A stretch of DNA of 64,000 nt, from IMG/VR virus record IMGVR_UViG_3300029953_000013, one strand, 5' to 3'. This stretch comes from a virus (Duplodnaviria > Heunggongvirae > Uroviricota > Caudoviricetes). Every line of letters begins with the position of its first letter. The first letter of the stretch is position 1. Positions 19,657 through 54,820 of the stretch are shown piece by piece. The notes under the pieces are model-generated. The model was not told the DNA's origin, ran no database searches, and saw only the letters and a list, made by a program, of their open reading frames with translations. The translations under genes were made by a program, and so were the position numbers.

Positions 19657-19670
19657 TTTGTTACCAACAA
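19657..19670 (-). promoter_or_regulatory. GTTGGTAACAAA promoter-like motif
   Basis: upstream of the 19599 start; leftmost copy of the GGTGGTAA-family motif. Confidence 0.4.
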
Positions 19671-19674
19671 CCGG

Positions 19675-20085
19675 TTACGGCTGCTGTTTCCGCTGCATGT
19701 AGTCCTGGTAAATCCGGTCATGCTTGTGTTCCAGCTTCATTCCCTCAGATTCGAGAGTTTCGGGGAAGGGAACAAGGCAGTTGACAAGATCCTCATCTTC
19801 CAGCTTTCCGGCTTCTTCGCGGGTCATGTCAATGGAGTAGACATGCCAGAAGGTGAGCGGGTTAACTTCCATGTGAATGAACTCGCGCTTGATGCGCTTG
19901 AAGTCAACTTCAACCTCAAGACAATCAGCCAATTCATGATGGAGCATCAGGACCGGAACATCGTGTTCCTCAATCTCCCACATGGGGAAGTTGATGTCTT
20001 GGTTGTTGCGCAGCATTGCCATCTTCCCATCCACGTTGATGAGAAGCACCAGGATCATACGCAGGGCGGGTTCCTTGGTCTTCAT
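19675..20085 (-). CDS. hypothetical protein
   Basis: start refined to MKTKEPAL. Confidence 0.45.
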   Translation of the reverse strand: MKTKEPALRMILVLLINVDGKMAMLRNNQDINFPMWEIEEHDVPVLMLHHELADCLEVEVDFKRIKREFIHMEVNPLTFWHVYSIDMTREEAGKLEDEDLVNCLVPFPETLESEGMKLEHKHDRIYQDYMQRKQQP

Positions 20086-20092
20086 GTCCTGC

Positions 20093-20308
20093 CTACTTCT
20101 TCTTCTTGGGGGCGGGAGGGATGATCTCAATATAGGCAATATCCGCCATGGGGTAGCTACGGATCAGATCGTTGTGCCAAAACGACATGACAGAGCCGTT
20201 GTCACCAAAGGGATTGGAGGTAACGTCCTTCCCAAGAAAGGATTCACCGTTCTTGAGAAAAACATTAACGGTAATAAGGGCTTCGTTGCCTTCGGGGTCG
20301 CGGACCAT
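20093..20308 (-). CDS. hypothetical protein
   Basis: 71 aa, ends in KKKK. Confidence 0.45.
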   Translation of the reverse strand: MVRDPEGNEALITVNVFLKNGESFLGKDVTSNPFGDNGSVMSFWHNDLIRSYPMADIAYIEIIPPAPKKKK

Positions 20309-20320
20309 TGCAGGTTCCTT

Positions 20321-20749
20321 TCAGTTGAAGTTTGAGAAGTGGAAATGCGTATCGATTTCCAGTAGATGAAGAATTAGTTGCGCTCTTACATAGACTTCAA
20401 TCCAGGTCTTACCTAACACTCGAAAGGAAACGGGACCGAATGGTGACTTGTCCGCAGGAACCTCTTTTGTATCTACCAACAGTCCAAGGCGCTTGTCGTT
20501 TGGATCGCTCCATCGTCTTGTCTTGCTGGTGAGGATCTTTCCATCACGAAGCTGGGCGTCTAGGATTGCCACAAGGGTAGGGTGTTCCCGTTGCCCAGGT
20601 GCTACTTCAAGCTCAAGCGGGTCTTGGATCTCCAGGCGTTCCACGATGTTATATCGGGCGTCACACCAGGACTTATATACTTCATCCCAAGGCATTGATT
20701 CCACACTTGAGATAAGGAGCCGCATGATTTCATTATTTTGCTTCGACAT
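20321..20749 (-). CDS. hypothetical protein
   Basis: 142 aa. Confidence 0.5.
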   Translation of the reverse strand: MSKQNNEIMRLLISSVESMPWDEVYKSWCDARYNIVERLEIQDPLELEVAPGQREHPTLVAILDAQLRDGKILTSKTRRWSDPNDKRLGLLVDTKEVPADKSPFGPVSFRVLGKTWIEVYVRAQLILHLLEIDTHFHFSNFN

Positions 20750-21398
20750 TATCCTTACCTACCACCGCAAACTCAGCAATGATGAGAAGCATTCGCGCCA
20801 TCAAATCTTGTGGCTTTTGGTCCCTGACAATGAAGCGATACATTGACTTTTCTGCGTTACCGGCGTAGGGCGAATACTTCATTTGCCGTTCCGGTCCTCG
20901 CGCCTCCAGCGTGATAATGCTTTGGGCTTCCTCACACCGGAACTTCCACTGGTTGAACGAGGGATGCTTGCACCAGTGCTGCTCTGATGGGAGCCAATCG
21001 GTAGCAGGGTAGGGGAGCGCCTTGAAGCGTTCTTCCCAAATTCCCCGGAGGTTACGGCAATGGACATCCGCAATGTATTTCGCCCAAAGCACGAAGGTGC
21101 CGGGGATGCTGCCTTCGCCCTGGATCAGCCTCTCGGGAATGTCGGGGTAGTGCCTTTCCCAAACGCTCACTTCTTGGGCTTCCGCCATTTGGCTAAAATC
21201 AGGACTGAGATTATTGTTGTAAAGGTGAGATTCAAGCTGCTTCATCTTCTCCGCATAGCGCAACTGCTCAAGCTGCTGCCGAAGAGTCTCTGAAGCGCAG
21301 CTACGGGCTTGGGATGCACGCAGGATTCGGTTCTCAAGCATGGCGATTGAAGCATCAACGCCGCTGAAATCGTTGAGTGAATATGGATTGCAGGACAT
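20733..21398 (-). CDS. hypothetical protein
   Basis: 221 aa. Confidence 0.55.
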   Translation of the reverse strand: MSCNPYSLNDFSGVDASIAMLENRILRASQARSCASETLRQQLEQLRYAEKMKQLESHLYNNNLSPDFSQMAEAQEVSVWERHYPDIPERLIQGEGSIPGTFVLWAKYIADVHCRNLRGIWEERFKALPYPATDWLPSEQHWCKHPSFNQWKFRCEEAQSIITLEARGPERQMKYSPYAGNAEKSMYRFIVRDQKPQDLMARMLLIIAEFAVVGKDNVEAK

Positions 21399-21401
21399 GG
21401 C

Positions 21402-21767
21402 TCACCGCTCAAGCGAAGCGGGTTGTTTGTGGGTGTGGAGGATATGTGCGATCAGGTATGCCTTCATCCATCCCCGTTCAAGATTGTGATCACTCACACT
21501 TGCCAGAAGATCAGGCTTGGTCGTGCCACGATAGATGATGAAAGGGTCACAGCGCTTACTCTTGCGCTTGTTCTGCGGACTCAACAGGATCTTGATGTCA
21601 CCGAAGACCGGCGTGCCCCATCCTGGCTTGTTCCGCACGGTGTTGCCGATGGCATGTCCCAGGTTGCTTTCCCGCTGCTTGGGGAATGTTTCCCGCCACA
21701 ATAGCTGCACTTCAGGTTCCTCAAGGTTATTGATGTGTTTGATGAGCATTTCCCGCATTGAGTCCAT
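21402..21767 (-). CDS. hypothetical protein
   Basis: 121 aa. Confidence 0.5.
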   Translation of the reverse strand: MDSMREMLIKHINNLEEPEVQLLWRETFPKQRESNLGHAIGNTVRNKPGWGTPVFGDIKILLSPQNKRKSKRCDPFIIYRGTTKPDLLASVSDHNLERGWMKAYLIAHILHTHKQPASLER

Positions 21768-21776
21768 GTGTTTCCC

Positions 21777-22211
21777 CTAGTTCTGTTTGGTGCCCATTTG
21801 GGCGATCTTGATGAGTAGCAGGGCACGAGTCCAAACCTTCCGATACGTGGTTGCACGCAGCGTGAACGACATGAAGCCGGGGATGTAGAAGTTGCACACA
21901 AACCGGGGCGAACTGCCTTTGGTCTGTTTCACACTTAGGTTGAATTCATTGCCGATTCCGGCATCCCGTCCTTGCCGCCAGTTCTTGCGAATGGCAGTCC
22001 AAGCCGTTGCCCACTCCTTGGGAGTCATAAGCTCTTTCAGCTTCTCGTGGCAGGAGCCATCAGGAATGTCAACCAAGTGATGGATAAGCATTTCAGCTTC
22101 AGAACTCAAGCTCGATTTCGATTTCGGTCCTTGCGCCTTTATAGGTTGTCCAACCCAATCGTTGTAAGTGACCCTCTTCCCGTCATTGGTTGTATAAGTC
22201 CTGAGTGCCAT
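21777..22211 (-). CDS. hypothetical protein
   Basis: RBS AAGGAGATTGTCCATG; GGTGGTAACAAAC motif about 20 nt upstream. Confidence 0.5.
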   Translation of the reverse strand: MALRTYTTNDGKRVTYNDWVGQPIKAQGPKSKSSLSSEAEMLIHHLVDIPDGSCHEKLKELMTPKEWATAWTAIRKNWRQGRDAGIGNEFNLSVKQTKGSSPRFVCNFYIPGFMSFTLRATTYRKVWTRALLLIKIAQMGTKQN

Positions 22212-22230
22212 GGACAATCTCCTTGATTGT

Positions 22231-22242
22231 TTGTTACCACCC
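22231..22242 (-). promoter_or_regulatory. GGGTGGTAACAA promoter-like motif
   Basis: member of the conserved upstream motif family. Confidence 0.4.
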
Positions 22243-22646
22243 TAAAGAGCGGCGAACGCATCCCGGTAGGCAAGCTCCAGGAGAGCCTTCATGAGCGTTG
22301 GTGCTACGCCGATCCCCTTACGAGCTATGTCAAGCTTCGTGAAGTAAATCTTGTCCTTCTTGTTCCCAAGGTCCACCTGAAGCCCTTGGTAGTAGAGATC
22401 ACGAAATTCAGCGAAGCGAACCTTTGTGGTCCTCGGGCTAAGGGTGACTTCGATCAACCCTTCCTTCTTCGATTTCGTGACATCCAATTCAACCTTGATG
22501 GCTGCGTCAAGAGTGAAATTCAGAAGATAATCGGTGTGCGATCCGTTGCTGTAGGGCAGGGGGTCTATGTTGAAAATCGTGGCGAAGACTTCATCAAGTT
22601 GGTCATTGGACATGGCATCTAAGTTACGGAGCAAAAGCCTATGCAT
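22242..22646 (-). CDS. putative GNAT-family acetyltransferase
   Basis: IARKGIGVAPTLMKALLELA resembles GNAT motif A; GAGG RBS. Confidence 0.4.
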   Translation of the reverse strand: MHRLLLRNLDAMSNDQLDEVFATIFNIDPLPYSNGSHTDYLLNFTLDAAIKVELDVTKSKKEGLIEVTLSPRTTKVRFAEFRDLYYQGLQVDLGNKKDKIYFTKLDIARKGIGVAPTLMKALLELAYRDAFAAL

Positions 22647-22667
22647 GATCAACCTCACATGCGGCTA

Positions 22668-22676
22668 TTTACCACC
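22668..22676 (-). promoter_or_regulatory. GGTGGTAAA promoter-like motif
   Basis: about 20 nt upstream of the 22646 start. Confidence 0.35.
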
Positions 22677-22677
22677 T

Positions 22678-22905
22678 TTAGATTCGCTTTCCGCATGTTG
22701 GGCAATTACTGCCCTGTTCCAAGTGCGAGTAGTTGTGGCGCGGGCTTGACGCCATCCGAAGCCGGATTTTCTCTTCCGTAACCATAAGATCGCACTCCAT
22801 CTCGGCGCGAAGATTTCTCACGGAAGGTCTTTCCCCTCTAGCCTTGATGCGCTGGTTGCGATCCCTGGCTGCGGCTGCTTGTTTTTCAAGCTCTTCCAGA
22901 GTCAT
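22678..22905 (-). CDS. small protein with a C-terminal CPTCG motif
   Basis: ATGA start/stop overlap with the upstream gene. Confidence 0.4.
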   Translation of the reverse strand: MTLEELEKQAAAARDRNQRIKARGERPSVRNLRAEMECDLMVTEEKIRLRMASSPRHNYSHLEQGSNCPTCGKRI

Positions 22906-23096
22906 AGCGGCAATGATCCAACGAAAAGTACGATGGATAACACGCCAGACACAAAAGAAGTTATGAAGATGGGGAATTCTGCCCAGCCGTGGGAACTTCC
23001 TACTCCGGTGCCTAGATACCACGCGCCACACCAGATTGTTAGAAGGCACGCCGCCATACTGATTCCAGCTAACCCGCGAACTTGGTTGCGATTCAT
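22902..23096 (-). CDS. small membrane protein
   Basis: two hydrophobic helices; ATGA coupling. Confidence 0.45.
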   Translation of the reverse strand: MNRNQVRGLAGISMAACLLTIWCGAWYLGTGVGSSHGWAEFPIFITSFVSGVLSIVLFVGSLPL

Positions 23097-23470
23097 GACT
23101 TCAGTTCCGCATTAACAAGCGTCATGAGCAAGAGGTAGCGTCCACGCGACTCTTCAGCGGTTGCGCCAACGATTCCCTTGGTGGGAAATTTGCCCTTGTT
23201 CCCGTTGTTGCTCAAGTCGGGTGTGCAGAGGAAGCGCGAAGCCCCAGCCACACCGTGCTCATTGAAGAAGTTTACTCCGGTGATTTCATAAATCTGGCTG
23301 CGGGTCAGCTTCTCCCAATGGGTGTTCTTGAAGCGCTTATTCCATTCGTCCTTGAACTGCCGGTGGGTCCAGTTAGAAACCATCTCATGCAGAAGAAGAA
23401 CCTCGGGTTGAATCTTCTCGCTACTGCGGCTGATGAAGATCGGGCTGTATTTGAGATTTGTGTTGCTCAT
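23093..23470 (-). CDS. hypothetical protein
   Basis: ATGA coupling. Confidence 0.45.
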   Translation of the reverse strand: MSNTNLKYSPIFISRSSEKIQPEVLLLHEMVSNWTHRQFKDEWNKRFKNTHWEKLTRSQIYEITGVNFFNEHGVAGASRFLCTPDLSNNGNKGKFPTKGIVGATAEESRGRYLLLMTLVNAELKS

Positions 23471-24030
23471 TGAACACTCCGTCGTAAATTGGGGCAACCC
23501 TCGCGCCCAAGGCGTTCCCATACTTCAAGGACAATGCGGCTGGCGGCATCATCGTAATGTAGGGGCATGTAGAGCAACCGGTAATCGTCCAGCACTCGCT
23601 TGATGGCTGTGTCGATCACAACCGCTTCGTCTTCGGTCTGGTTGCGCCCCTTGGGGTTGTAGACCTTGCTGCGATGGAGCAGGAAGTTCATGTTGTCGAA
23701 CTGCTCATGAGCTTTCATCACAACATCCGGCAGGTTCATCAGCTTGTTTTCCCCGGCGAGATCGTTGTAGACCACAGACAGGACAAGCGGCGAGTCTGTG
23801 ATTACCACATCGACTTCACCCTTCAGCCGGTAGAGCTTCCAGTGCTGCTTCCCGAAGATGTAACACTGATCGGCAAAAATCTTGTGGTTGCCTTCCCACA
23901 CCTTATCTTTGGCGAACTCGGTTGCCAGTTCACAGTTAACGCCAAGGCGCTTGAGCTCGGCAAACACTTCCGCCGCTGTCGTGCTTTTGCCCGATCCAGG
24001 TCCACCGAAAATGTTTACATAGAGGGTCAT
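23467..24030 (-). CDS. AAA_28-type P-loop kinase (NadR-like ribosylnicotinamide kinase domain?)
   Basis: FGGPGSGKSTTAAEVFAELKRLG...ATEFAKDKVWEG resembles the NadR RNK domain; RBS AGGTGGCTTGATG. Confidence 0.5.
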   Translation of the reverse strand: MTLYVNIFGGPGSGKSTTAAEVFAELKRLGVNCELATEFAKDKVWEGNHKIFADQCYIFGKQHWKLYRLKGEVDVVITDSPLVLSVVYNDLAGENKLMNLPDVVMKAHEQFDNMNFLLHRSKVYNPKGRNQTEDEAVVIDTAIKRVLDDYRLLYMPLHYDDAASRIVLEVWERLGREGCPNLRRSVQ

Positions 24031-24233
24031 CAAGCCACCTGCACTTTCCTGACCCAGCATTCAAGATCCCGCACTCCTGCGCGAATCCAGAGCCACCACC
24101 AGAGCCAGTAGATCCCCCAAAGATCCCAGCGCCGGGGCTCCCAGTCCGGGAATGCCTTTCGCACCCTCCGAAGGGTGATGTAGCCCATGAGGGCGAACAG
24201 AAGCGCGAACACTTCGCTTATAAAGAATTCCAT
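24030..24233 (-). CDS. small Trp-rich membrane protein
   Basis: RBS GGAGGCACCTATG. Confidence 0.4.
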   Translation of the reverse strand: MEFFISEVFALLFALMGYITLRRVRKAFPDWEPRRWDLWGIYWLWWWLWIRAGVRDLECWVRKVQVA

Positions 24234-24318
24234 AGGTGCCTCCAAAGGCGGTTTCATTGGTTCATACCAGCAACGGATTACTGCGCGTAGAAGGCTCTAC
24301 AAGCCCCGGCAATTTGAA

Positions 24319-24354
24319 GGGCAGGGAAGGGCGGCTTAGACCCTTCCACTGCCC
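24319..24354 (-). terminator. GC-rich hairpin downstream of the 24386 gene
   Basis: GGGCAGGGAAGGG...CCCTTCCaCTGCCC. Confidence 0.35.
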
Positions 24355-24385
24355 CTGGACCCCTCCCCGGCTCGGGAATCGGTAG

Positions 24386-25059: not shown

Positions 25060-25240
25060 TCCGGCTTCCCATCATTCCAATTGTGGATCGGTAGTTTCTT
25101 GTCCCTGAAGAAATCGTGGTAAGGCTTTGCGAAGCAAAGGCAGCATGGAATGGAATGCTCATGCACTGCCTCGTACCGGCACTTGTGGCACTTGCTGGGT
25201 CCAATCGGGTTCTCTTTGGGCTTGAAGGAAATCTTCAGGT

Positions 25241-25846: not shown

Positions 25847-26056
25847 ATGGATCGTCAGGCACTCTCAGTGCGAGAGCTTGAAGTCCTACGATGGCTGGGC
25901 GAGGGAAAGAAGTCTTACGATATTGGCATCATTCTTGACATCTCGCACCGAACCGTAGACTTCCATGTAAAAAACATAACCAAGAAGTTGAATGTAGTCA
26001 CTCGTGCGCAAGCTGTAGCAACTGCACTCAAGGCTGGTCTAATTATGCATACATGA
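25847..26056 (+). CDS. LuxR/GerE-type HTH DNA-binding protein (stand-alone)
   Basis: LSVRELEVLRWLGEGKKSYDIGIILDISHRTVDFHVKNITKKL is the LuxR C-terminal HTH; plus strand among minus-strand genes. Confidence 0.65.
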   Translation: MDRQALSVRELEVLRWLGEGKKSYDIGIILDISHRTVDFHVKNITKKLNVVTRAQAVATALKAGLIMHT

Positions 26057-29523: not shown

Positions 29524-29536
29524 GGTTGTTACCATC
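29524..29536 (-). promoter_or_regulatory. GATGGTAACAACC promoter-like motif
   Basis: about 17 nt upstream of the RNA ligase ATG. Confidence 0.35.
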
Positions 29537-30126
29537 TATACTTCTTGTGTTTTCTCTTGGTTGCGCATGTCTTCTAATTTCTTCTCGGCTGCCCATAAGG
29601 CATCGCCCCTGTAAGCTTTGATCCCAAGTTTCTTGGCTTCAGCATTAAATACTTTCCTTGCCGCCCTACAAACGGCTGCATCTGCTTTTATTTCTGCGGC
29701 AAGTTTCCTTGCAGCGACCTTAGCAGCCTTTTCAGCAGTTCTCTTTTTTGCAGCAAGTTCAGCAGCTATAACCCTTCTAGCGCTACGTTGCTTAAACAGC
29801 CGATCAGCGCTCCCAGTACTTAGCTTCCGAAGTATTTTCGGAGCATATACTTTTAGTAAAAGTTCCTGTGTATGGGGCAACACATCGATAACTGTTGCAT
29901 GTTTTGATAAATTGATATCCTTACGGCAAAGCACTAAATTAGACGCGCAATGTTCACCGCCACGAGACTTTGGAAGGTAATGGTCTACATGGGCGTCATC
30001 TGGTGAAATAGGAGTCCCTGTGTAAAAGCATCTACCACCGAATGCTTCGTAAATAGCTTCCCTATGTTTCTTAGACAGAGGATAAGGGAGCTGATCGTAG
30101 GCTGAATACTTGTTATTCTTTTTCAT
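29536..30126 (-). CDS. HNH homing endonuclease
   Basis: HVDHYLPKSRGGEHCASNLVLCRKDINLSKH. Confidence 0.65.
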   Translation of the reverse strand: MKKNNKYSAYDQLPYPLSKKHREAIYEAFGGRCFYTGTPISPDDAHVDHYLPKSRGGEHCASNLVLCRKDINLSKHATVIDVLPHTQELLLKVYAPKILRKLSTGSADRLFKQRSARRVIAAELAAKKRTAEKAAKVAARKLAAEIKADAAVCRAARKVFNAEAKKLGIKAYRGDALWAAEKKLEDMRNQEKTQEV

Positions 30127-30132
30127 ATTATT

Positions 30133-30142
30133 TGTTACCAAC
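30133..30142 (-). promoter_or_regulatory. GTTGGTAACA promoter-like motif
   Basis: immediately upstream of the HNH gene. Confidence 0.35.
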
Positions 30143-31647: not shown

Positions 31648-31668
31648 GGCAACTCCTTTCTATTAGGG

Positions 31669-31681
31669 AATTACCACCGCC
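31669..31681 (-). promoter_or_regulatory. GGCGGTGGTAATT promoter-like motif
   Basis: about 20 nt upstream of the RlpA-like gene. Confidence 0.4.
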
Positions 31682-36702: not shown

Positions 36703-37521
36703 ATGAATATCGGTAAGATTGAATACTTACCATCGGTTCCTGGTGTGTATCTAATCCGAAACACACGTAATGGAAAGGTGTATGTCGGTCAGAGCCAGAT
36801 AGGTTTATACCAACGCTGCTATGGACACTTGGCGAAGCTCCAGGGAGGCGGCGACAATCGCCATCTTCAAGCCGATTGGGACAAGTGCGAAGCTGATTTT
36901 GTCTTTGAAGTCCTTGTGACCTGTGAGCCAGAAGAATGTTCTATGTATGAAACTCACTGCATTGCTCAATATCACTCTTACCACCGGAAGTTTGGCTACA
37001 ACATCGACATAAGAACAAGCGGCGCAGGTAGTAAAAGCCAAGAAACTATCGACAAGATTCAGTCAGATGCTTCAAAGGCTGCGCGTAGTAAGGCAATGAC
37101 AGGTCGTGTGCGTATCACGGATGGAGTGGAAAACCGATCCATTACGCCAGGGCAAGCTGTGCCGGACGGCTGGTGGGAAGGGCTTACCATTCGTAACAAG
37201 CGCAAAACCAATCCAGCAAACAAGGGTTTAACTACGGGTTACGACCCTTTGACGGGTGAAACTATGCAGATCGCTATTGATGATCCTCGTTACCTGAATG
37301 GAGAAATCAAGCACATTGCAAATAAGCGGTGGGAAGGTGTTATAACCAAACGGCAAGAAACAGAGAACAATCGCCTTGGACCTAAAATGGAAACATTGAA
37401 GGGATGCGTTTGGATCAACAACGGTGTAGTCAACAAACGCATCCCTTCCGGTCCAATCCCTAATGGATGGAATGCCGGTAGGCTTCCTAGAAAGCCAAAC
37501 CGAAAAAAGGAAGCCGCCTAA
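36703..37521 (+). CDS. GIY-YIG homing endonuclease (free-standing)
   Basis: GVYLIRNTRNGKVYVGQS...YQRCYGHL; RBS AAGGAGAAGGGTTGAATG; sits between nadV and prs on the opposite strand. Confidence 0.7.
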   Translation: MNIGKIEYLPSVPGVYLIRNTRNGKVYVGQSQIGLYQRCYGHLAKLQGGGDNRHLQADWDKCEADFVFEVLVTCEPEECSMYETHCIAQYHSYHRKFGYNIDIRTSGAGSKSQETIDKIQSDASKAARSKAMTGRVRITDGVENRSITPGQAVPDGWWEGLTIRNKRKTNPANKGLTTGYDPLTGETMQIAIDDPRYLNGEIKHIANKRWEGVITKRQETENNRLGPKMETLKGCVWINNGVVNKRIPSGPIPNGWNAGRLPRKPNRKKEAA

Positions 37522-41905: not shown

Positions 41906-42507
41906 TACTCTTTTACTGTATTACCACCCCCGCGCCAGTCTCCGAATAACCCTAGCTCTCTGGCTTCCCTCATTCCTTTGGCTACAACTAACCACGCTAA
42001 GTAAGGCATGTTCTTTCTTGTCAGATTGCATCTGATACACGCTGGAACAACATTGCTAGTTATATGAGGAAGGCTATTATCCACTCGATCAAGCGTTAGT
42101 TTGCCTGAAGTTTCCCCACAGTAACAACACCCCTTACCAAGTAACTCCATGATCCAGTCAGTGGTTAAATCATTGGTCCAACCGCGCTTTGCATCCCCAC
42201 CATTGGAATCTTGTTTGATAACCAGGGCAATATCATAGGGGTTTTTGGAACTTCGCAGTTGCTTGGCGTATTCTGACCCTTTAACTCTTCGGGCTTGTAG
42301 CTTCTTCGGATCGGTTTCTTTCCTTCTTGGGTAAGTTGCCTTCCTGATAGAATCACAAATGACACAGGTTTTACGGAAAAAGACTAAACCCTTTGACTTT
42401 CTATACGATGGTATCACTTCTGGGAACGCCTTAGCACATGTGTCACACACAAAGCCTTCCTTCGTTCTTTTTGTGGACATGCGCATATACCAACTCAGCG
42501 TGTCCAT
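41905..42507 (-). CDS. HNH homing endonuclease (HNH_3-like)
   Basis: LDRVDNSLPHITSNVVPACIRCNLTRKN plus N-terminal zinc-ribbon cysteines. Confidence 0.55.
   Translation of the reverse strand: MDTLSWYMRMSTKRTKEGFVCDTCAKAFPEVIPSYRKSKGLVFFRKTCVICDSIRKATYPRRKETDPKKLQARRVKGSEYAKQLRSSKNPYDIALVIKQDSNGGDAKRGWTNDLTTDWIMELLGKGCCYCGETSGKLTLDRVDNSLPHITSNVVPACIRCNLTRKNMPYLAWLVVAKGMREARELGLFGDWRGGGNTVKE
41930..41938 (-). promoter_or_regulatory. GGTGGTAAT promoter-like motif about 25 nt upstream of the tRNA-Ser-like 5' end
   Basis: the motif sits before an RNA gene, which argues for a transcriptional role. Confidence 0.4.
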
Positions 42508-43551: not shown

Positions 43552-43870
43552 TGGTGGATCTGGCGAGAGTCGAACTCGCGTCCAAGAAGGTGAACCCACA
43601 AGAGTTTTATCAGCATCTTAGCCTCTGAATCGGGAGGCACCGCATGTCAAGGTGCTTGGTTTTCCTAGTTTACTCGCCAGCTAGGAGGCGCATCATTTAG
43701 GCAGCTACAGCAAAAGCTCCTGCGCGGCGGTAACGACGGAAAGCAACAACATTGGACTTCTTGTTGGTGTTGGCAGTTTTGTTTTAGTTGATTTGATGAC
43801 CCAGCCCTTCAACTACCTGGGGATGCCTCTTTGCGAATCAGCACGAACCTGTCGAAACCTTTACAGACCC
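43552..43870 (-). ncRNA. ssrA: tmRNA (ssrA)
   Basis: 5' GGGTCTGTAAAGGTTTCGAC... pairs with the 3' ...GGACGCGAGTTCGACTCTCGCCAGATCCACCA (close to the E. coli tmRNA 3' end); internal tag ORF ends ...GCT GTA GCT GCC TAA (AVAA-stop); candidate resume codon GCC after an in-frame UAA. Confidence 0.7.
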
Positions 43871-44200: not shown

Positions 44201-44276
44201 TGGTAGGGGAAACCGGGATCGAACCGATGACCTTCACCGTGTAAAGGTGTTGCTCTACCAACTGAGCTATTCCCCT
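44201..44276 (-). tRNA. tRNA-Val (TAC)
   Basis: acceptor AGGGGAA/TTCCCCT, anticodon loop TTTACAC, T-arm ATCGG-TTCGATC-CCGGT, CCA encoded. Confidence 0.75.
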
Positions 44277-46263: not shown

Positions 46264-46367
46264 AGGCAGGGGTAGGACTCGAACCTACGACCCTTTACGG
46301 CATAATTGGTGCGTAGCACGGAATCAGCCTACTGCAAGTAATGCTCTACCAACTGAGCTACCCTGCC
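46264..46367 (-). tRNA. atypical 104-nt tRNA-like gene (possible insertion or intron in the anticodon region)
   Basis: canonical acceptor GGCAGGG/CCCTGCC, D-arm GCTC-AGTTGGTA-GAGC and T-arm GTAGG-TTCGAGT-CCTAC, but 53 nt between the D and T arms; no CCA. Confidence 0.35.
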
Positions 46368-47995: not shown

Positions 47996-48010
47996 GTTTC
48001 TACCACCAAC
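47996..48010 (-). promoter_or_regulatory. GTTGGTGGTAGAAAC promoter-like motif immediately after a terminator
   Basis: the motif directly follows the 48011-48033 terminator and precedes the 47921 gene. Confidence 0.45.
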
Positions 48011-48057: not shown

Positions 48058-50085
48058 TTACAGGTAGTTGATCAGAACCCGAACATCACCGGCAGCGCAC
48101 ACAGTGGCGTCAAGATCGGTCGCCGCAGCAGTGATTGCGATTCCGATACCGGTTGAGAAGTAGGAACCAAAAAGACCGAACTCGATTTCCTTTGATCCTG
48201 AAGCGGGAATTGTGATGGTGCTGTATGGGGTGCTGGTGCCGACAGTAGGAGCAACCGCCAAGTTATACAGACGCACGTAACGAGCGCTGGTGGCGTAGTT
48301 GTTCAAGCTGAGGGAGAAAATCTTACCAGGAGTAGCCTTTACCGCAGCCGCGTTGGTTGTCGCCGCCGCCAATACTGAGTACTGTGACAGGGAAGCCACG
48401 TTGGGGCTGATTGTGGCATTCAGAGCAGGATCGGTAGCCAGGGGAGCCGTGGAAGCAGCCTTGACAGCCGCCATGCTCACACCATCAGTGATGCGGTTGT
48501 AGAAGCCAGACGCAATGGCAGGACCGGCAGTGATTGCCGCCACGGTGCCAACGGTGGTGACTGTGCCGCTGGCGATTGTCGCCGTGGTCTGAAGGTTGGC
48601 AGCGGTAGGCTGGTTGACGGTTGCAAGCCTGGGATCAAGGTCAGAGGTTGAGAGCCGGGTGAAAGCCTGGATCGTGCCGCCAGCGAATACCGTTGTGATG
48701 TTGCACTTGAGGTAACGGTACGCGGTCTTACCAGAGAAGAACCGGTAAGTTGACGCCGCGATGCTGATTGCAGCCTGGATGGGTGCGCCAGTGCCCACGG
48801 CATCATCGAACACGGTCAGAGTGACCCAGTTCACGTTGTCGTTACTGCCCTGGAAAGTGACCGCACCGGAAGAGATACCAGCAGAGCCATTCACCTGACA
48901 ATAAAACGAACGGAAAGATGTTGGGTATCCGCCAACTGTGTCAATGCCGGTCGTGCCACCAGCAGCCAACATGATGTTGTTGCCAGCCGCCGACTGGGTA
49001 GCTGCACCAGTAATGCTCAAATCGTTCTGGTCTGAAGCCATGGTGACAGGCAGAGCAGCAGCCGAAGCAGCCACACCAAGAGCGATATTCGCACCGCCCA
49101 CAGCGCTCATGTTGGTCATCAAGCGCCCGGTCGCATCGGTGAGGATGTTGCGTACGTTGGTTCCGTCTGAGCCGCCCATAGGAACGGGGTTTGCAGCAAT
49201 CGGGCTACCAGCCGCAATGGCACCCTGCGCGATCACACTTGGAGCAGGATCGACAGCAAACGCATGAGGATTGATCTGGAAGCTTGCGGTTCCTGAAGTC
49301 CATGCGCTGGCAACAATCTTGAAGTGGGTTGCACCCCCGCAGAGGAAGTCCCATGCCCGTCCAGTGTTTGCCGGAAGCACACCTGACACGAACTCGCTGA
49401 TCCCAGTATCGGTGCGTGAACCAGCCACACCATACCAAGTCGCCCCACCATCTGGCGAAGCAAGGAAGCTCACGTTCACACCAGCATAGGTTCCCTGCAC
49501 TGAAGCCGTGAGCGCACCAGTGTTCGGCACAGCGAAAGGACCGATTACTGAAGCGGCGGTTGTGACGTTGCCAGCGGTTCCAGCAGCCTTGTAACCCTGG
49601 ATGGTTACAACGGCATTTGTGATGTTCACATTGGGCGTGCCGCTTACCGCGACAGTCCATACACCAGCCTGATTCACAGCCCCGATGGTATTTGCGCCGG
49701 TAGGAAGTGCGGGAAGCGCAGCCAGAGAGACAGGCTGAGTAGCTTGCCAGAAGGTGCCTGAAACCGGCTGAGTGGCTTGGTAGAATGAACCTGAAACCGG
49801 AATGGTTCCATTCACGTTTACAGCGCCAATCGTGTTCGCCCCAGTGGGGAGTGCAGGAAGCGCCGACAATGATACGGGCTGTGTTGCTTGCCAGAAAGTC
49901 CCGGTGACAGGCTGTGAACCGGGGAAGAAGGTTCCGCTTACGGGAACAGTTCCAACGATACCTACGTTACCGATGGTATTGGAACCAGCAGGAAGCGCAC
50001 CTGTGAGGGTTGCCGTTCCACTACCGCCCGAACCACCGCTTGAGCTACCGATACCAAGCGCAGCAGTATTTACTTTTGATGGCAT
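48058..50085 (-). CDS. tail fibre protein (Gly/Ala/Thr/Ser-rich with internal tandem repeats)
   Basis: 675 aa; repeated VSG-F-QPV-GTFWQATQPVSL-ALPALPTGANTIGAVN units; RBS AAGGGTGTTGAGTAATATG. Confidence 0.6.
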   Translation of the reverse strand: MPSKVNTAALGIGSSSGGSGGSGTATLTGALPAGSNTIGNVGIVGTVPVSGTFFPGSQPVTGTFWQATQPVSLSALPALPTGANTIGAVNVNGTIPVSGSFYQATQPVSGTFWQATQPVSLAALPALPTGANTIGAVNQAGVWTVAVSGTPNVNITNAVVTIQGYKAAGTAGNVTTAASVIGPFAVPNTGALTASVQGTYAGVNVSFLASPDGGATWYGVAGSRTDTGISEFVSGVLPANTGRAWDFLCGGATHFKIVASAWTSGTASFQINPHAFAVDPAPSVIAQGAIAAGSPIAANPVPMGGSDGTNVRNILTDATGRLMTNMSAVGGANIALGVAASAAALPVTMASDQNDLSITGAATQSAAGNNIMLAAGGTTGIDTVGGYPTSFRSFYCQVNGSAGISSGAVTFQGSNDNVNWVTLTVFDDAVGTGAPIQAAISIAASTYRFFSGKTAYRYLKCNITTVFAGGTIQAFTRLSTSDLDPRLATVNQPTAANLQTTATIASGTVTTVGTVAAITAGPAIASGFYNRITDGVSMAAVKAASTAPLATDPALNATISPNVASLSQYSVLAAATTNAAAVKATPGKIFSLSLNNYATSARYVRLYNLAVAPTVGTSTPYSTITIPASGSKEIEFGLFGSYFSTGIGIAITAAATDLDATVCAAGDVRVLINYL
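49690..49960. repeat. tandem ~126-nt direct repeat inside the tail fibre gene (approximate coordinates)
   Basis: two near-identical 42-aa units seen in the protein and in the DNA. Confidence 0.45.
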
Positions 50086-50086
50086 A

Positions 50087-50407
50087 TTACTCAACACCCT
50101 TAACATGAGCATTGAGGATCGGTGATCCTGTCAATGCGCTTGTAACCATGTAGAAGGAAGTCAAGGAATCCTTCGAGATTGTCAGAAAATCCGTGGGAAG
50201 CGCTACGGTATCCATGGCGAACGTTGCAAGCCAGACGAAGGTATGCCCGTCATCTGCACCGTACAAGTCAACCTGGGCTGTGCCTGATCCGGCGATTGCC
50301 ACCGTAAAAGACTTAACCCCATCGTTGCATACTTCTGTTGGACCGGTAACGGCAGCGCTAACGTTTGTCAGCAACTTCTGGATTCCGCCGTTGAAATCAA
50401 TAGGCAT
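50087..50407 (-). CDS. hypothetical protein (tail-associated?)
   Basis: GGTGGTAATACCCCCAAACAAGGGGGTACTCATG upstream. Confidence 0.45.
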   Translation of the reverse strand: MPIDFNGGIQKLLTNVSAAVTGPTEVCNDGVKSFTVAIAGSGTAQVDLYGADDGHTFVWLATFAMDTVALPTDFLTISKDSLTSFYMVTSALTGSPILNAHVKGVE

Positions 50408-50439
50408 GAGTACCCCCTTGTTTGGGGGTATTACCACCA

Positions 50440-50448
50440 ATCGATTTT
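50440..50448 (-). promoter_or_regulatory. GGTGGTAAT promoter-like motif; a second copy (GGTGGTAG) lies at 50491-50498
   Basis: two tandem copies about 50 nt apart. Confidence 0.4.
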
Positions 50449-50502
50449 GAATTCACGAAAAAAGGAACCACCGATGTGATTCCCTTATATCTACCACCAG
50501 TG

Positions 50503-50700
50503 CTATTCTGGCGGCTTTGCTACCCAGTGTGGGCAGATTCGGCAAGCATCAGTGCATGTAAATAAAAAATATCCTGGGTTGATCAGCTTTGGATTGGTGC
50601 AGCGAAGCTTATGAGTTTGAGCTTGGAGGATGTGTGCCCAATGAACGCAAGTAGTCAGATACTTGCATCCATACACATCCTCCAAAGTTTTTACTTTCAT
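50503..50700 (-). CDS. small Cys/His-rich protein
   Basis: ATGA coupling to the upstream stop. Confidence 0.4.
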   Translation of the reverse strand: MKVKTLEDVYGCKYLTTCVHWAHILQAQTHKLRCTNPKLINPGYFLFTCTDACRICPHWVAKPPE

Positions 50701-51200
50701 TTTAGCAATTCCGCCAAATCGAGGGTGATCACGTTGGGAACTTCCATGAGCCGCTTGTTGGTGCTTTCGGCTACACAAGCCAGCACTACAGCCTTGGGGA
50801 ACCCATTGAGAGGATGAGTCATGGTGCCGCTACCGGAGATCACGACAAACTTTGCCGTTTCCCATGCTGCACTTCCATTCAGCTTGTCGTATGCAGCCCA
50901 CATGTCGTGGACCATCATGACGTAAAGGCTATCCTGGTGCGTGGTAGCGTAGTTGAAGGTTGCACACTTCCAGCCATGATTGCGAAGCCAGGAAAGCACC
51001 GGCTTTGGGTCGGTATCCTGCGGCGGTCGCGTGTAGAAATGTTTCTCTACAATTACCGCCTTATCAGGACCGCCAAACTTGGCAAGAATGTTGTCTTCCA
51101 GCCTACCAAAGTCCTGGTTAAGTCCTGCACTACGTGCGCTGAAGAAGAGATAGTTCCCATCAACGAATAGGGAAATACTGTTTTGTATATCTTGGGACAT
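50697..51200 (-). CDS. putative NYN/LabA-like (PIN-fold) protein
   Basis: N-terminal LFVDGNYLFF. Confidence 0.4.
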   Translation of the reverse strand: MSQDIQNSISLFVDGNYLFFSARSAGLNQDFGRLEDNILAKFGGPDKAVIVEKHFYTRPPQDTDPKPVLSWLRNHGWKCATFNYATTHQDSLYVMMVHDMWAAYDKLNGSAAWETAKFVVISGSGTMTHPLNGFPKAVVLACVAESTNKRLMEVPNVITLDLAELLK

Positions 51201-51529
51201 TACAAATTCTCGTGCGGGGGTGGTCCAAATGCTGGAGAAGGATTGACGGAAGGCTCACCGGCTGGCTCGGGGATTACCTTGGGTGCCACAACGGCAGCAG
51301 GAACCTCGGATGCCTGGACCTCTGAGGAAGTCTCAGTGTCGGGGATGCCCAGCTTTTCATTCAGCCACTTCAACGCACCTTCGGGGGTGCCATTGTAAAC
51401 GACTTCGCTATGCTGGATGCTACGGTCCATGATGGTCAAAAGGATCTTGCCATCGGGATAGTAGCCGTAAGTACCCTCGGCGGTATCAGCGTTGAGAGCA
51501 ACGATTGCAGTATTGATCGGAAGGCTCAT
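51200..51529 (-). CDS. hypothetical protein with a Pro-rich C-terminus
   Basis: RBS TAAGGAGAACTGAATG. Confidence 0.45.
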   Translation of the reverse strand: MSLPINTAIVALNADTAEGTYGYYPDGKILLTIMDRSIQHSEVVYNGTPEGALKWLNEKLGIPDTETSSEVQASEVPAAVVAPKVIPEPAGEPSVNPSPAFGPPPHENL

Positions 51530-51551
51530 TCAGTTCTCCTTAGATTCAGGA

Positions 51552-51560
51552 ATTACCACC
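51552..51560 (-). promoter_or_regulatory. GGTGGTAAT promoter-like motif
   Basis: about 25 nt upstream of the 51529 start. Confidence 0.4.
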
Positions 51561-51622
51561 AATACAAGAAAAGGGAGCCTAAGCCCCCTTCCCTCTCATT
51601 CATGTTTCACGAATTGTGAAAG

Positions 51623-53518
51623 TCACACCAGTTCGCAACCACCGGCAGTGCAAGCCAGTTCATGTGAACCGGTCGTGGTGTCTGACTTCTCGTATTCCGC
51701 CAGGATGCCCCACTTGATGTTCGGCATCTTGTTCACGAATTCGTTGTAGGTGGCTTCATCACATTCCTGATAGGGTGCCTGTTTGTAAACAGCATCCGAC
51801 TCAAAGTGAGGCAGGAACGATACGCCGCCGATCTGGTTGAAGTGCTTGAATACCCAAGCGCCAACCTCCATCCACTCGGCTTCGCGCACGTAAACTGTGA
51901 TGCTCACGTTATGTTCACACCAAGCCTGTTTGTAGACCATGTAAAGTTCCAACTGCTCAATCGCAGTGCGGTCATTACGCAACACAGCGCCCTTTGGAGC
52001 CTTCTGAGGGAAGCTGAAAACGTAGGTGGACTCAGGCTTGTAGGCATCAGGCTCACAAGGAACACCCTGGTAGTACATCATCTGGCTCAAGGGGTCTTTT
52101 ACATCGCCGCGCACGGTGCGGATGTAGTATTCAGAATACCGTGGGTGGATGCCGCTGGCAGAGTCCACAAGCTGTGACACTGTGCCTGAGGGCTTCACGG
52201 TCGTGATTGCCACACTCTGATTGATCCCAAACTTACCGGACCATTCAGCATTGGTATCAATGGCAATCCGCTTCATGTCATCCAGGAACTTACGAAGGAC
52301 AACCTCACCCAGCGAACCATTGGTGAGAGCGTTATCCATGATTCCCGTCATGGAAACGCCAAGCAAACGCTCTTCCTCTGAATTCTTCTTCCAATCCTTG
52401 CGAAGATAGCGGAAGTTTGTCAAGGTTGACTGCATTGTGCCCAAGATCACAGCCAGCCGCACCTTCTCTGCAATGGTTTCCGGCGTGTCGTTCTCGCGGA
52501 TCACCACTTCAGTCAGATTGCAGAAGGACTTGCTGCGCAGGAGAATTTCAGCGCAAGGGTTGGTCCCGAAGTCGAAATTAGGATCGCGCCGACCGGACTT
52601 CACAGCCTGTTTCTTCGCGGCTTCACGGTTGAAGATCCCACGTTCGCCAGATTTGGAGTCATACAGCGACAACCACTCACGCATGAAGACGCCAATTTCC
52701 GGCTTCTCTGTATAGACAGCCGAATTGTTGGCAAGCCGACGATGGGGTTCTGTCACCCACCACTGACCCGACTTGGCGTTGCGCATACGCTCATCAGACA
52801 GGTTGCTCAAGCTGATACAGGCGGAACGGCGAACACCACCCACCACAACGATGTCAGCAATCTTGCAAGCAATGTCGTGACATTCCAGGCTGGTGAGTTT
52901 GCGCCCAGCAGCCTTGTTGAACACCTGGACGGTAAACTTGAACAGGTCTACAAGGGGCGCAGGACCGCTTGCACGCCCTCCAAAGGTTTTGAGCTTGGCA
53001 CCGGACGGGCGAACCTTTGAAACGTCCCAGGAGGGCACCTGACCGCTGTAGAGAAGGCTGATAAGCTCACGGAAGGCAGACGCCCATCCGATCTTGCTAT
53101 CTGCTACGCCGATCACGGTATCTGAAGTGTGGAAATCTTCAGCCACAGTGGGGAGCATATTGACGCTCTGGCGTTCGACACTGAAGCCTACGCCGGTTCC
53201 GCACATGAGGATGTACATGATCTCATCGAAAGCGCGGGGATGATCGATGGCAACATAGCTGCAATTGAACCCAGCTACATTATCCCTTTCAAGTGCGGGT
53301 CCGGCTGTCATGAACGCACGCATTGAGGGCATGATACGCATTGAATGCACGGCATCGCGCAATTCACGCAGAGTAAGATCGTCTACAAATCCTTTCTTCT
53401 GGAAGAAGGCGAAGTATCGATCCACGGTTTCATCCCAGGTTTCCCTGCGATTTAGATCATCCCTCCATCGAGCATATCTGCTCATGTGGATGAACTGCTG
53501 GTATTGTGTGAGACTCAC
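51623..53518 (-). CDS. ribonucleotide reductase, probably class II (B12-dependent, single chain)
   Basis: 631 aa; NPCAEILL active-site motif; no separate small-subunit gene in the window. Confidence 0.6.
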   Translation of the reverse strand: MSLTQYQQFIHMSRYARWRDDLNRRETWDETVDRYFAFFQKKGFVDDLTLRELRDAVHSMRIMPSMRAFMTAGPALERDNVAGFNCSYVAIDHPRAFDEIMYILMCGTGVGFSVERQSVNMLPTVAEDFHTSDTVIGVADSKIGWASAFRELISLLYSGQVPSWDVSKVRPSGAKLKTFGGRASGPAPLVDLFKFTVQVFNKAAGRKLTSLECHDIACKIADIVVVGGVRRSACISLSNLSDERMRNAKSGQWWVTEPHRRLANNSAVYTEKPEIGVFMREWLSLYDSKSGERGIFNREAAKKQAVKSGRRDPNFDFGTNPCAEILLRSKSFCNLTEVVIRENDTPETIAEKVRLAVILGTMQSTLTNFRYLRKDWKKNSEEERLLGVSMTGIMDNALTNGSLGEVVLRKFLDDMKRIAIDTNAEWSGKFGINQSVAITTVKPSGTVSQLVDSASGIHPRYSEYYIRTVRGDVKDPLSQMMYYQGVPCEPDAYKPESTYVFSFPQKAPKGAVLRNDRTAIEQLELYMVYKQAWCEHNVSITVYVREAEWMEVGAWVFKHFNQIGGVSFLPHFESDAVYKQAPYQECDEATYNEFVNKMPNIKWGILAEYEKSDTTTGSHELACTAGGCELV

Positions 53519-53560
53519 AGTATTGCTCCTATAAAACGAAAAGGACGAGCGAGAGGGTGA

Positions 53561-53569
53561 ATTACCACC
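53561..53569 (-). promoter_or_regulatory. GGTGGTAAT promoter-like motif about 45 nt upstream of the RNR gene
   Basis: member of the conserved motif family. Confidence 0.35.
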
Positions 53570-53603
53570 GCTGCACGCCCGTCCTTGGAACCCATCCGCA
53601 GAC

Positions 53604-54326
53604 CTATTCCTTGCCCTTAGCCTTCAAGGGTTTGTTCAAAGCCTGAAGTTCAAAACCCTGAACCGGGTTCAAAGAGATGATGTCAACATGGTCTACAAGC
53701 TTCAGCTTCAGGGCATCTTCCGGCATCAGCCAGAGATCCCGCGCCCCGGAGTCCTTGATAAGCTTCTTCAGCTTGGCGGTAGTGGTCTTGCAGTTCTTGG
53801 CGATCTCATCCAGCAGCATTTCATTGAGCTTCACATCATGCTCAACCTGCGCGGCGATCTCATCAATCCCACTGTAGCCGATACCACCGGACAAGCCGTG
53901 GATCATCGCCGTGGACTTGGGAGACATGAAGCGTGCCTGAGAAGTACCGGCAGACAGCAACAGCGCACCAGCAGAGAATGCATGAGAAGCGTTGTACGTA
54001 ATCCAGTCCATTCCACTTGACCGGATCGTATTCAGCATCTCGAACGCTGCGTAAACTTCCCCGCCAACCGAATTGATTTCCAGCAGAGCCACTTCTGACT
54101 GCCGCTGGTACTTCAACTTGTCAACAGCAGCACGAAAGTTCTGTGCAGTGCGTTCGGTGATCTCGCCACGAATGGTAATGACGGGAGCGTAGTTACTAAG
54201 CATGGATGGACCCTGACCGAGCGCTTCCATCAACTCAAATTCTTCTTCACCAGCGGTGGATGGAATTGTCTTCTTTGAAAGTTTACCGAGGACGTTATTC
54301 AGCACCCGATACTGATTGCCATTCAT
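53604..54326 (-). CDS. clpP: ClpP-family serine protease
   Basis: SHAFSAGALLLSAG (catalytic Ser context) and MIHGLSGG (His); RBS CAAAGGAGTATTAATG. Confidence 0.65.
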   Translation of the reverse strand: MNGNQYRVLNNVLGKLSKKTIPSTAGEEEFELMEALGQGPSMLSNYAPVITIRGEITERTAQNFRAAVDKLKYQRQSEVALLEINSVGGEVYAAFEMLNTIRSSGMDWITYNASHAFSAGALLLSAGTSQARFMSPKSTAMIHGLSGGIGYSGIDEIAAQVEHDVKLNEMLLDEIAKNCKTTTAKLKKLIKDSGARDLWLMPEDALKLKLVDHVDIISLNPVQGFELQALNKPLKAKGKE

Positions 54327-54592
54327 TAATACTCCTTTGGAGACTCAATACCACCATCAAGAATGGTTTGAGTGTCGTTGAATTGCTCGATGACCCTTCG
54401 TGAGTCCTTTACTCCGTTTACTACCAACTCACCCATCACCCGAAGATTCTCCATTTTCTTGATGGTGAGGGTCGCGTACTCGTGATCGTACTTGAAGCCC
54501 AGCACCCTAGATGAATTCGAGGAACCATCAAGCATCCACATCAAAGCCTGGGTGATCGGATTGTATTCGGGTTTTCCTACGGTTTTCGCCAT
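54326..54592 (-). CDS. hypothetical protein
   Basis: 88 aa. Confidence 0.45.
   Translation of the reverse strand: MAKTVGKPEYNPITQALMWMLDGSSNSSRVLGFKYDHEYATLTIKKMENLRVMGELVVNGVKDSRRVIEQFNDTQTILDGGIESPKEY
54347..54358 (-). promoter_or_regulatory. GATGGTGGTATT promoter-like motif
   Basis: about 25 nt upstream of the clpP ATG. Confidence 0.4.
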
Positions 54593-54820
54593 TTCGGCTC
54601 CTGTCGCGTTAATGTACTTAAATTCTTATTGCAGTTATTTAAGTACTTAATTAAGAATTATAATCTATGTACTGTTGTTGTTATAAATATATTGTACTTG
54701 AAAGGTAGGTGTACATGTACTAGCCAAACCCCCTCTTCCCCCTATACCACCACTCCGCACAACACCCATTTTGTGAAAAAGTTTCGATTGGTGGTATTGA
54801 CAAGTGAAAGGCATTAATGT
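54593..54820. promoter_or_regulatory. divergent AT-rich control region between the minus-strand arm and the plus-strand head module
   Basis: palindromes AATTCTTA...TAAGAATT and GTACATGTAC; one GGTGGTATTGACA motif on the plus strand at 54789-54800. Confidence 0.45.

Follow-up and report, generated by a model that had tools for sequence, protein, structure and literature searches.

A candidate single-element promoter class and a divergent sigma factor as its possible reader in an uncultivated peat phage

The late promoters of phage T4 (TATAAATA) consist of an 8-bp -10-type element without a -35 and stand in many copies near gene starts. Their reader gp55, the classical case, is a sigma-like protein with a region 2-like part only, which works on the host core polymerase with gp33 and the replication-coupled clamp gp45. 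Bacterial extended -10 promoters of sigma-70 (TGnTATAAT), among them those that Thermus phage P23-45 favours, also need no -35, while group 3 sigmas read -10 elements such as GCCGATAA (sigma-28/FliA/SigD) or GGGTAT (sigma-B/F) with a -35 of TAAA or GTTTAA. The known promoters of single-subunit polymerases span 15-23 bp. Phage phiEco32 is the closest experimentally studied case to the one described here: the host core polymerase and a phage-encoded divergent sigma, gp36, serve middle and late promoters, in which gp36 reads a single element, tAATGTAtA, and transcription starts 6-8 bp downstream (PMC8948821). Here we describe a recurrent element, GGTGGTAA, in a stretch of 64,000 nucleotides (nt), called the window below, from IMG/VR record IMGVR_UViG_3300029953_000013, a virus of the Caudoviricetes.

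In the reading that we prefer, with a probability of about 0.6, the copies of GGTGGTAA would be promoters of one class, extended -10-like and made of a single element, that serve middle and late genes and are read by the host core polymerase together with a phage sigma factor. The parts of this reading differ in strength. That the motif is a promoter is likely, and the assignment of a 248-aa phage protein, P0005, as its reader stands at even odds or a shade better.

The element resembles the T4 late promoters as a many-copy, -35-less element near gene starts with a sigma-like phage protein as its candidate reader. The T4 element is AT-rich, whereas the present motif is G-rich, and no analogue of gp33 or gp45 turned up here, where none was sought. 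With the extended -10 promoters it shares a TG one base upstream of TA and the absence of a -35 requirement, but the rest of the hexamer reads A-Y-W-A and the GG at -17/-16 is foreign to sigma-70 promoters. The likeness to group 3 promoters lies in a G-rich extended -10 ending in TAA or TAT, and the best fold matches of P0005 include SigD, SigB and WhiG; however, no -35 is seen here, and the agreement with GCCGATAA covers only 5 of 8 positions. Compared with phiEco32, the sequence of the element is unrelated, about 25-30 candidate promoters stand against about 6, and P0005 aligns through region 4.1, whereas gp36 is without region 4.

The phage is uncultivated and comes from peat soil. Its genome is about 120 kb, and copies with 99.99% identity exist in several peat and bog metagenome assemblies. 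Genes run leftward (minus strand) from about 54.6 kb to position 1 of the window and rightward from 54.8 kb, where small proteins, the large terminase, the portal and further structural genes follow in this order. The window also contains 13 tRNA genes and one transfer-messenger RNA (tmRNA). A search for near DNA among cultured phages gave no match, the terminase is 21-25% identical to Bacillus phage terminases, and a search of IMG/VR with the portal had no match. We surveyed about 90 kb of the genome, namely the window plus 17 kb on its left and 5 kb on its right, and Pfam and PHROG scans took in nearly all window proteins and those of a 10-kb left extension (L011). L011/L022 and L001 are stretches of the same genome beyond the window, while L008 and L009 are contigs of relatives.

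Enrichment and sequence of the element

It turned out that GGTGGTAA has 14 exact copies in the window, 13 of them on the minus strand, where 1.19 are expected from shuffled sequences (none of 100 shuffles reached 14). The related form GTTGGTAA has 5 copies against 1.24 expected. For the 7-mer GGTGGTA, most copies (31 of 34) lie in sense orientation: 21 are intergenic and 10 are within coding sequences (CDSs), while the three antisense copies comprise one intergenic and two within CDSs, intergenic DNA being 17.7% of the window. An unbiased scan of all 7-mers on the intergenic sense strand against the rest put GGTGGTA at rank 1 (p=6.5e-10), followed by the overlapping words GTGGTAA, GGTAACA and GTAACAA.

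The shuffle counts and the scan bear out the claim of an earlier sequence-only reading of this DNA that the motif recurs upstream of genes. Among the 22 positions listed there, 19 are sound, including GTTGGTAACAA at 19662, 30136 and 33362 and GATGGTAACAA at 29530-29536. The copy at 50492 is genuine, although a terminator and not a gene follows it. The remaining two are not promoter-positioned: 47300 (AGTGGTAAG) falls in coding sequence, with the next ATG 2 nt away, and 47587 (GGTGGTAG) includes the upstream stop codon and is 4 nt from the next ATG. Copies at 13295, 34673, 41367, 43990, 44826, 54745 and 63474 had been missed. GTTGGTA at 44256 and 46347 belongs to tRNA D-loops and was excluded.

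G(G/T)TGGTA forms the conserved core. The two letters before TGGTA on the minus strand are GG in 29 cases and GT in 15, and each of the other dinucleotides has 1-6 cases. From 39 aligned sites of this phage and two relatives we obtained the consensus (T)GGTGGTA(A)(Y)(A/T)(A), with GTTGGTAACAA as an existing variant. The conservation extends over 8-11 nt only, and the flanks are unrelated. Upstream of the motif in the 39 sites, the information content is at most 0.35 bit at every position to -45, and no k-mer in the -35 zone rose above the shuffle controls even when the spacing was allowed to vary, so a bipartite -35/-10 structure was not found. Downstream, the A+T content of the next 11 nt is about 67%, compared with about 48% in the whole window.

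The invariant TGGTA has the exact geometry of an extended -10 element (T-15 G-14 n-13 T-12 A-11), including its TG, and GG at -17/-16 is invariant or nearly so. Position -7 is A in 26 of the 39 sites and T in 2, which departs from the hexamer TAnnnT; because A takes the place of T at -7, the motif is not a canonical sigma-70 extended -10 promoter. The sequence-only reading saw no resemblance to sigma70 -10/-35 spacing; the motif is indeed without a -35 and without the T at -7, but with its extended -10 geometry it is partly like a sigma-70-type promoter. A literature search for GGTGGTAA turned up only primers.

Position relative to genes, tRNAs and terminators

The motif changes strand where the genes do, at the divergent point near 54.77 kb. 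Most starts preceded by a Shine-Dalgarno (SD) sequence (12 of 16) lie 19-29 nt from the A of GGTGGTA (23, 23, 28, 24, 21, 26, 29, 24, 24, 22, 24 and 19 nt), and the other four lie at 44, 62, 79 and 84 nt. The mature 5' ends of tRNAs follow this A at 11 nt (Pro), 19 nt (Ser) and 22 nt (Gln-ctg); the copies before tRNA-Ser(tga) and tRNA-Gln(ctg) had already been named in the sequence-only reading and proved correct. ATGs without SD are found 9-10 nt downstream of the motif at 30136 (an HNH gene), 20760 and, in L009, 9384. On the upstream side, the distance from the preceding stop codon varies from 0 to several hundred nt. The narrow downstream spacing, set against the variable distance to the upstream stop, indicates that the element is anchored to what follows it. 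As in bacterial promoters, it is oriented with the downstream gene and stands just upstream of the 5' end. Pairing of the motif with the anti-SD was ruled out, since the true SDs lie downstream of it and copies also precede tRNAs.

Intrinsic terminators were located by a purpose-written check, as a scanner for consensus sigma-70 promoters and terminators was too noisy to decide. Seven copies are located 5-23 nt past a GC-rich hairpin and T-run (30136, 48001, 50432, 51554, 63474, one in L008 and one in L009), and the copy near 48010 had been correctly described in this way before. At the divergent point, an outward-facing pair (54745 on the minus and 54790 on the plus strand) is 38 bp apart. 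Starts and tRNAs are so near the motif that no room is left for a separate core promoter or element downstream, and on the upstream side a separate promoter would hardly fit between motif and terminator or within the narrow divergent pair. Taking terminator room, spacing and the pair together, we read the motif as a single-element promoter.

The same positions could also be read at the level of RNA (GGUGGUAA), as an endoribonuclease processing site or a binding site of a phage RNA-binding protein in long polycistronic transcripts. The fixed distance upstream of SDs and tRNA 5' ends would suit such a signal, some copies stand just after stop codons or before terminator hairpins and thus inside the upstream transcript, and genes for an RNA ligase and a NYN-domain nuclease are present in the phage. 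We consider this improbable, because seven copies are just past terminators, where little RNA should arrive, because divergent copies 27-62 bp apart leave no room for separate upstream promoters, and because no other conserved promoter-like element accompanies the motif.

Least probable of all, and by a wide margin from likely, is a DNA signal unrelated to initiation, such as an activator site upstream of a separate core promoter, a Chi-like sequence or a short mobile repeat. The motif shares a strand bias and the letters TGGTGG with E. coli Chi (GCTGGTGG), and it forms inverted pairs TACCACC...GGTGGTA at five places. However, an intergenic concentration at a fixed distance from starts is not expected of Chi, a downstream -10 would not fit into the 9-29 nt that separate the motif from the start codon or tRNA, and a spacing of the inverted pairs that varies from 15 to 62 bp does not suit a dimer site. 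The mobile-repeat alternative, which the sequence-only reading had itself named as a finding that would overturn its promoter claim, fails as well: no conserved flanks beyond the core, of the kind seen in miniature inverted-repeat transposable elements or repetitive extragenic palindromes, were found, and the copies are promoter-positioned. The Chi-like signal and the mobile repeat are ruled out by this position and by the unconserved flanks.

The five inverted pairs (TACCACC-N15..62-GGTGGTA) lie at 54745/54790 in the window, 20310/20333 in L001, 18349/18375 in L020, 7441/7510 in L008 and 101/135 in L009. Those in L001 and L020 are within arrays of genes that all run one way, with no gene that the antisense copy would obviously serve, and do not fit the promoter reading well; such pairs may be terminator-promoter composites or sources of antisense RNA.

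Table 1. Copies of the element in the window and what adjoins them
Element	Coordinates	Strand	Context
GGTGGTAGATC	13291..13301	-	Sole copy in left 19 kb; about 37 nt before SD-preceded ATG of a very small open reading frame (ORF); function uncertain
GTTGGTAACAA	19658..19668	-	62 nt upstream of ATG 19599, 253-aa gene
GGTGGTAGGTA	20756..20766	-	In CDS 3' end, 10 nt before ATG 20749; possible leaderless start or chance
GGTGGTAACAA	22231..22241	-	Abuts upstream stop codon; 23 nt before ATG 22211
GGTGGTAAATA	22666..22676	-	23 nt before ATG 22646
GGTGGTATTAA	26936..26946	-	28 nt before ATG 26911, deoxynucleoside monophosphate kinase-like gene
GATGGTAACAA variant	29526..29536	-	21 nt before ATG 29508, RNA ligase gene
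GTTGGTAACAA	30132..30142	-	5 nt past terminator hairpin; SD-less ATG 9 nt on, HNH gene (29536-30126); candidate leaderless mRNA
GGTGGTAATTC	31668..31678	-	24 nt before ATG 31647, DPBB lytic transglycosylase-like gene
GTTGGTAACAA	33358..33368	-	21 nt before ATG 33340, 143-aa protein with multiple helix-turn-helix (HTH) motifs
GGTGGTATGAA	34669..34679	-	In CDS 3' end; 11 nt before tRNA-Pro 5' end (34661)
GGTGGTAACAA	38428..38438	-	Best position weight matrix score; 26 nt before ATG 38405, phosphoribosyltransferase gene
GGTGGTATGAA	40055..40065	-	29 nt before SD-preceded ATG, small membrane protein
GGTGGTAATAC	41918..41928	-	19 nt before tRNA-Ser(tga) 5' end 41902
GGTGGTAAAAA	44736..44746	-	Intergenic copy
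GGTGGTAAGAA	46790..46800	-	22 nt before tRNA-Gln(ctg) 5' end 46771
GGTGGTAGAAA	47997..48007	-	5 nt past terminator hairpin and T-run; 79 nt before ATG 47921
GGTGGTAATAC	50428..50438	-	23 nt past terminator; 24 nt before ATG 50407
GGTGGTAGATA	50488..50498	-	Terminator hairpin about 10 nt downstream
GGTGGTAATTC	51550..51560	-	7 nt past terminator; 24 nt before ATG 51529
GGTGGTAATTC	53559..53569	-	44 nt before GTG 53518, ribonucleotide reductase; kept in L008
GGTGGTATTGA	54345..54355	-	22 nt before ATG 54326, ClpP-like protease
Leftward copy of divergent pair	54741..54751	-	TACCACCA block common to three phages
Rightward copy of divergent pair	54790..54800	+	24 nt before ATG 54821, first structural-arm gene
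GGTGGTAGTGA	63474..63484	+	8 nt past terminator; 19 nt before ATG 63500; terminator-motif-gene order kept in L008 and L009

A sigma-like protein as candidate reader

The sequence-only reading had proposed a genome search for a phage RNA polymerase or sigma factor. In the surveyed 90 kb the Pfam and PHROG scans found no RNA polymerase gene, and the search did yield a divergent protein of the sigma-70 family. This protein, P0005, is encoded at 17818-18564 of L011, 6.5-7.3 kb left of window position 1, and an 11.3-kb overlap with 99.99% identity places its gene in the genome of the window. P0005 carries a sigma region 2-like signature. As a single sequence it has no match in Pfam, PHROGs or PDB, a search of GTDB genomes with it gave no match, and an exhaustive search of 1.84 billion representative proteins returned only 7 homologues. 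A profile of nine members (P0005-P0013), however, matches more than 30 sigma-70-family PDB sequences, such as SigA, RpoD, SigB, RpoS and SigF (best E=1.4e-7), over query positions 21-215, which correspond to regions 2.1 to 4.1. Single family members have weak Pfam matches to Sigma70_r2, r3 and r4 (E 0.004-0.23).

The AlphaFold2 model of P0005 is all-helical, with a predicted local distance difference test (pLDDT) of 76.6 for the nine-sequence alignment, against an unusable 46 for two sequences. Every one of the best 50 Foldseek matches listed from PDB is a sigma factor; B. subtilis SigD and SigB head the list, which includes Streptomyces WhiG, and the probability reaches 0.99 with modest E-values of 1.8e-3 and up. 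The template modelling scores are low because the domain arrangement differs. The residues of Thermus SigA that contact TG (His and Glu in IPVHMVE) align to Arg and Asp/Glu in the P0005 family, which would be compatible with P0005 reading TG and proves nothing.

The gene of P0005 lies in a conserved module of MoxR ATPase, VWA protein, AAA ATPase, ParB-like protein, sigma, integrase-like protein, DNA polymerase A, Rad52 and RecA, and the family gene is always found between the ParB-like gene and the integrase-like/DNA polymerase A module. Adjoining the module, a pair of MoxR-type AAA ATPase and VWA/DUF2201 metallopeptidase-like genes (1381-4086, minus strand) is kept throughout the phage clade.

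The block around the P0005 gene, from window positions 1-19.6 kb to about 4.6 kb further left (about 25 kb), is nearly free of the motif. The absence from the left 19 kb claimed earlier is nearly correct, with one copy at 13295-13301. In the intergenic gaps of this block we found TTGACA-type promoter-like sites at 4161-4132 (11 of 12 consensus positions) and 17934-17905. Upstream of the P0005 gene there are a terminator and the palindrome TGTGAGATCACA, and GGTGGTA does not occur there on the strand of the gene.

These observations suggest the following order of events. The host holoenzyme would transcribe the early genes, the P0005 gene among them, and P0005 would then displace the host sigma on the host core polymerase. 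In the new holoenzyme, region 3.0 would read TG at -15/-14 and region 2 would read TA at -12/-11, along with the flanking GG, and recognition would need no -35 contact. With the A of GGTGGTA taken as -11, transcription should start about 11 nt past it. The resulting leaders would be 10-17 nt long, little more than an SD, a few mRNAs would be leaderless, and the tRNA-Pro transcript would begin at or beside the mature 5' end. Counted from the A at the assumed position -11, the SD-less ATGs are reached after 10-11 nt and the 5' end of tRNA-Pro after 12 nt; these distances would put +1 at the place predicted from TA as -12/-11.

A different possibility is that a host sigma reads the motif and no phage factor takes part, be it an alternative sigma with a long -10 (e.g., sigma-28/FliA or sigma-B/F) or an unusual primary sigma. 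The TGnTA geometry suits any holoenzyme of the sigma-70 family, the sigma-28 -10 GCCGATAA agrees with the motif at 5 of 8 positions, and the sigma-B/F -10 GGGTAT resembles TGGTAT. We regard this as unlikely, though less so than the other alternatives. A sigma is encoded by the phage itself; the block of about 25 kb that holds this sigma and the presumed early genes has almost no copies of the motif, and TTGACA-type sites are found there instead; and a host alternative sigma is usually scarce and stress-regulated, so that about 30 promoters depending on one would be unusual.

Another candidate is a phage RNA polymerase, single-subunit or YonO-like, encoded in the right arm, about 30 kb of which lie outside the survey. 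The terminase, the portal and a neighbouring protein are distantly SPbeta-like (a YonF annotation and a faint YonD_N match), and SPbeta encodes the polymerase YonO (PMC5467207). This explanation too has a low probability in our view: no polymerase was found in the surveyed 90 kb, YonO acts from the promoter of a single late operon and not from dozens (PMC5467207), and an element of 8-11 bp with TGnTA geometry suits a sigma better. A 675-aa orphan ORF (48058-50085), taken up as a possible hidden polymerase, was rejected as a Gly/Ala/Thr-rich, repeat-rich and fibre-like protein. Likewise, a 69-aa GerE/LuxR protein (25847-26056, plus strand) is not favoured as reader, since it has only a sigma-4-like HTH and the motif is not palindromic. 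Its gene is on the strand opposite to all its neighbours and is preceded by TGTGATACCGCTCACA (TGTGA-N6-TCACA, with CRP-like spacing).

Several findings weigh against a P0005-read promoter class. In three places (50492 in the window, 9799-9805 and 11556-11562 in L015) a terminator hairpin follows the motif within about 10 nt, the reverse of the usual order; such copies could make short RNAs, be antitermination targets or have another role. Several copies stand 0-2 nt after stop codons, which leaves some probability for a function at the 3' end of the upstream cistron. Ten sense copies are located within CDSs, which is partly explained by Gly-Gly and Val-Val codons. P0005 keeps a region 4-like segment, yet the motif has no -35 element, and the link between the two is one of co-occurrence only. 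A simple sigma-70 scan finds that canonical promoters are not statistically enriched. Finally, the far right arm beyond the survey could encode another sigma or polymerase.

Conservation in relatives and other signals

Three relatives share 53-59% portal identity, and we compared the contigs of two of them, L008 (from a 119-kb contig) and L009. Both carry the motif before the ribonucleotide reductase, ClpP-like and neighbouring genes, and also past the terminator that precedes a structural gene of about 180 aa. The back-to-back divergent pair is kept, with 62 bp between its copies in L008 and 27 bp in L009. In alignments of orthologous intergenic regions of this phage and the relatives with 53-56% portal identity, TGGTGGTA is the only block kept besides terminator stems and SDs, joined in the divergent region by its mirror TACCACCA. 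Outside the window, L001 of the same genome has copies 26, 20 and 28 nt before three structural genes. GGTGGTA also precedes the DNA polymerase gene, at 24 nt in this phage (15897 in L022), 21 nt in L018 and 46 nt in L020, while L024 has the variant GGTGGAA 21 nt before this gene. In these more distant phages of the clade, GGTGGTA (GGTGGAA in L024) is found before other genes as well.

The strand rule, the narrow spacing, the restart past terminators, the divergent pair and the conservation in relatives all agree with the phage-specific promoter class put forward in the sequence-only reading. Its label of a middle/late class needs widening: the class is broader than late and includes tRNAs, nucleotide metabolism, the DNA polymerase gene and virion genes.

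A wider reading, which we put forward tentatively and at a little under even odds, is that an unannotated phage sigma family marks a clade of phages of about 120 kb from soil and peat and reads the G-rich, -35-independent GGTGGTAA, which together with a palindrome would make up a two-signal temporal programme. In this reading, the motif sequence was kept while the sigma diverged to 25% identity, and TGTGA-N3-TCACA marks the early genes. As far as searches of the literature, PHROGs and Pfam show, the motif and the proposed sigma family are undescribed. The strategy is not: phage sigmas with single-element promoters are well established in principle, so that the conceptual advance is modest. The motif would provide a transcription map, readable from sequence, for an uncultivated phage lineage with mostly unannotated proteins, including the sigma-dependent genes, the operon restarts past terminators and the tRNAs transcribed from a promoter of their own. 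In addition, an orphan protein family gains a candidate DNA target. The two, if confirmed, would make up a compact orthogonal sigma-promoter pair (8-11 bp, no -35), of which few are known from phages, with possible use in synthetic biology.

The palindrome TGTGA-N3(-6)-TCACA has 23 copies in the window (1298, 5596, 7481, 9044, 11187, 13521, 14245, 17965, 25761, 41668, 51615, 53507 and 11 more) and is also found in L011/L022 and L024. Many copies occupy intergenic DNA in the motif-poor left block, with an ATG 17-25 nt further on, and some are within CDSs; one copy is 36 nt before the P0005 gene. In L024, a distant relative, GTGTGAATTTCACAC takes the same positions. The palindrome may be an operator or a parS-like site, and the phage encodes two ParB/Srx-like proteins besides the GerE-type HTH protein.

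A further word, (C)TATCATG, has 15 minus-strand copies, where about 4 would be expected of a random 7-mer in 64 kb, and 11 sense-strand copies are intergenic. Its minus-strand sites include 47953, 46808, 43876, 42775, 41686, 40079, 33448, 13818, 13353 and 1317. They are heterogeneous: some are -10-like TATCAT beside the palindrome or GGTGGTA (46808, 40079), and some are in SD-spacer-ATG contexts. One copy abuts the 5' end of the tmRNA and another the 3' end of a tRNA-Leu. The phage tmRNA itself is at 43552-43870 on the minus strand (Rfam, 84.5 bits). Besides, a tRNA-like gene of 104 nt with an insertion, possibly intron-containing, was found at 46264-46367 on the minus strand (Rfam, 51.8 bits), which ARAGORN had missed, and the NAMPT/phosphoribosyltransferase region contains, on the opposite strand, a GIY-YIG homing endonuclease gene (36703-37521, plus strand).

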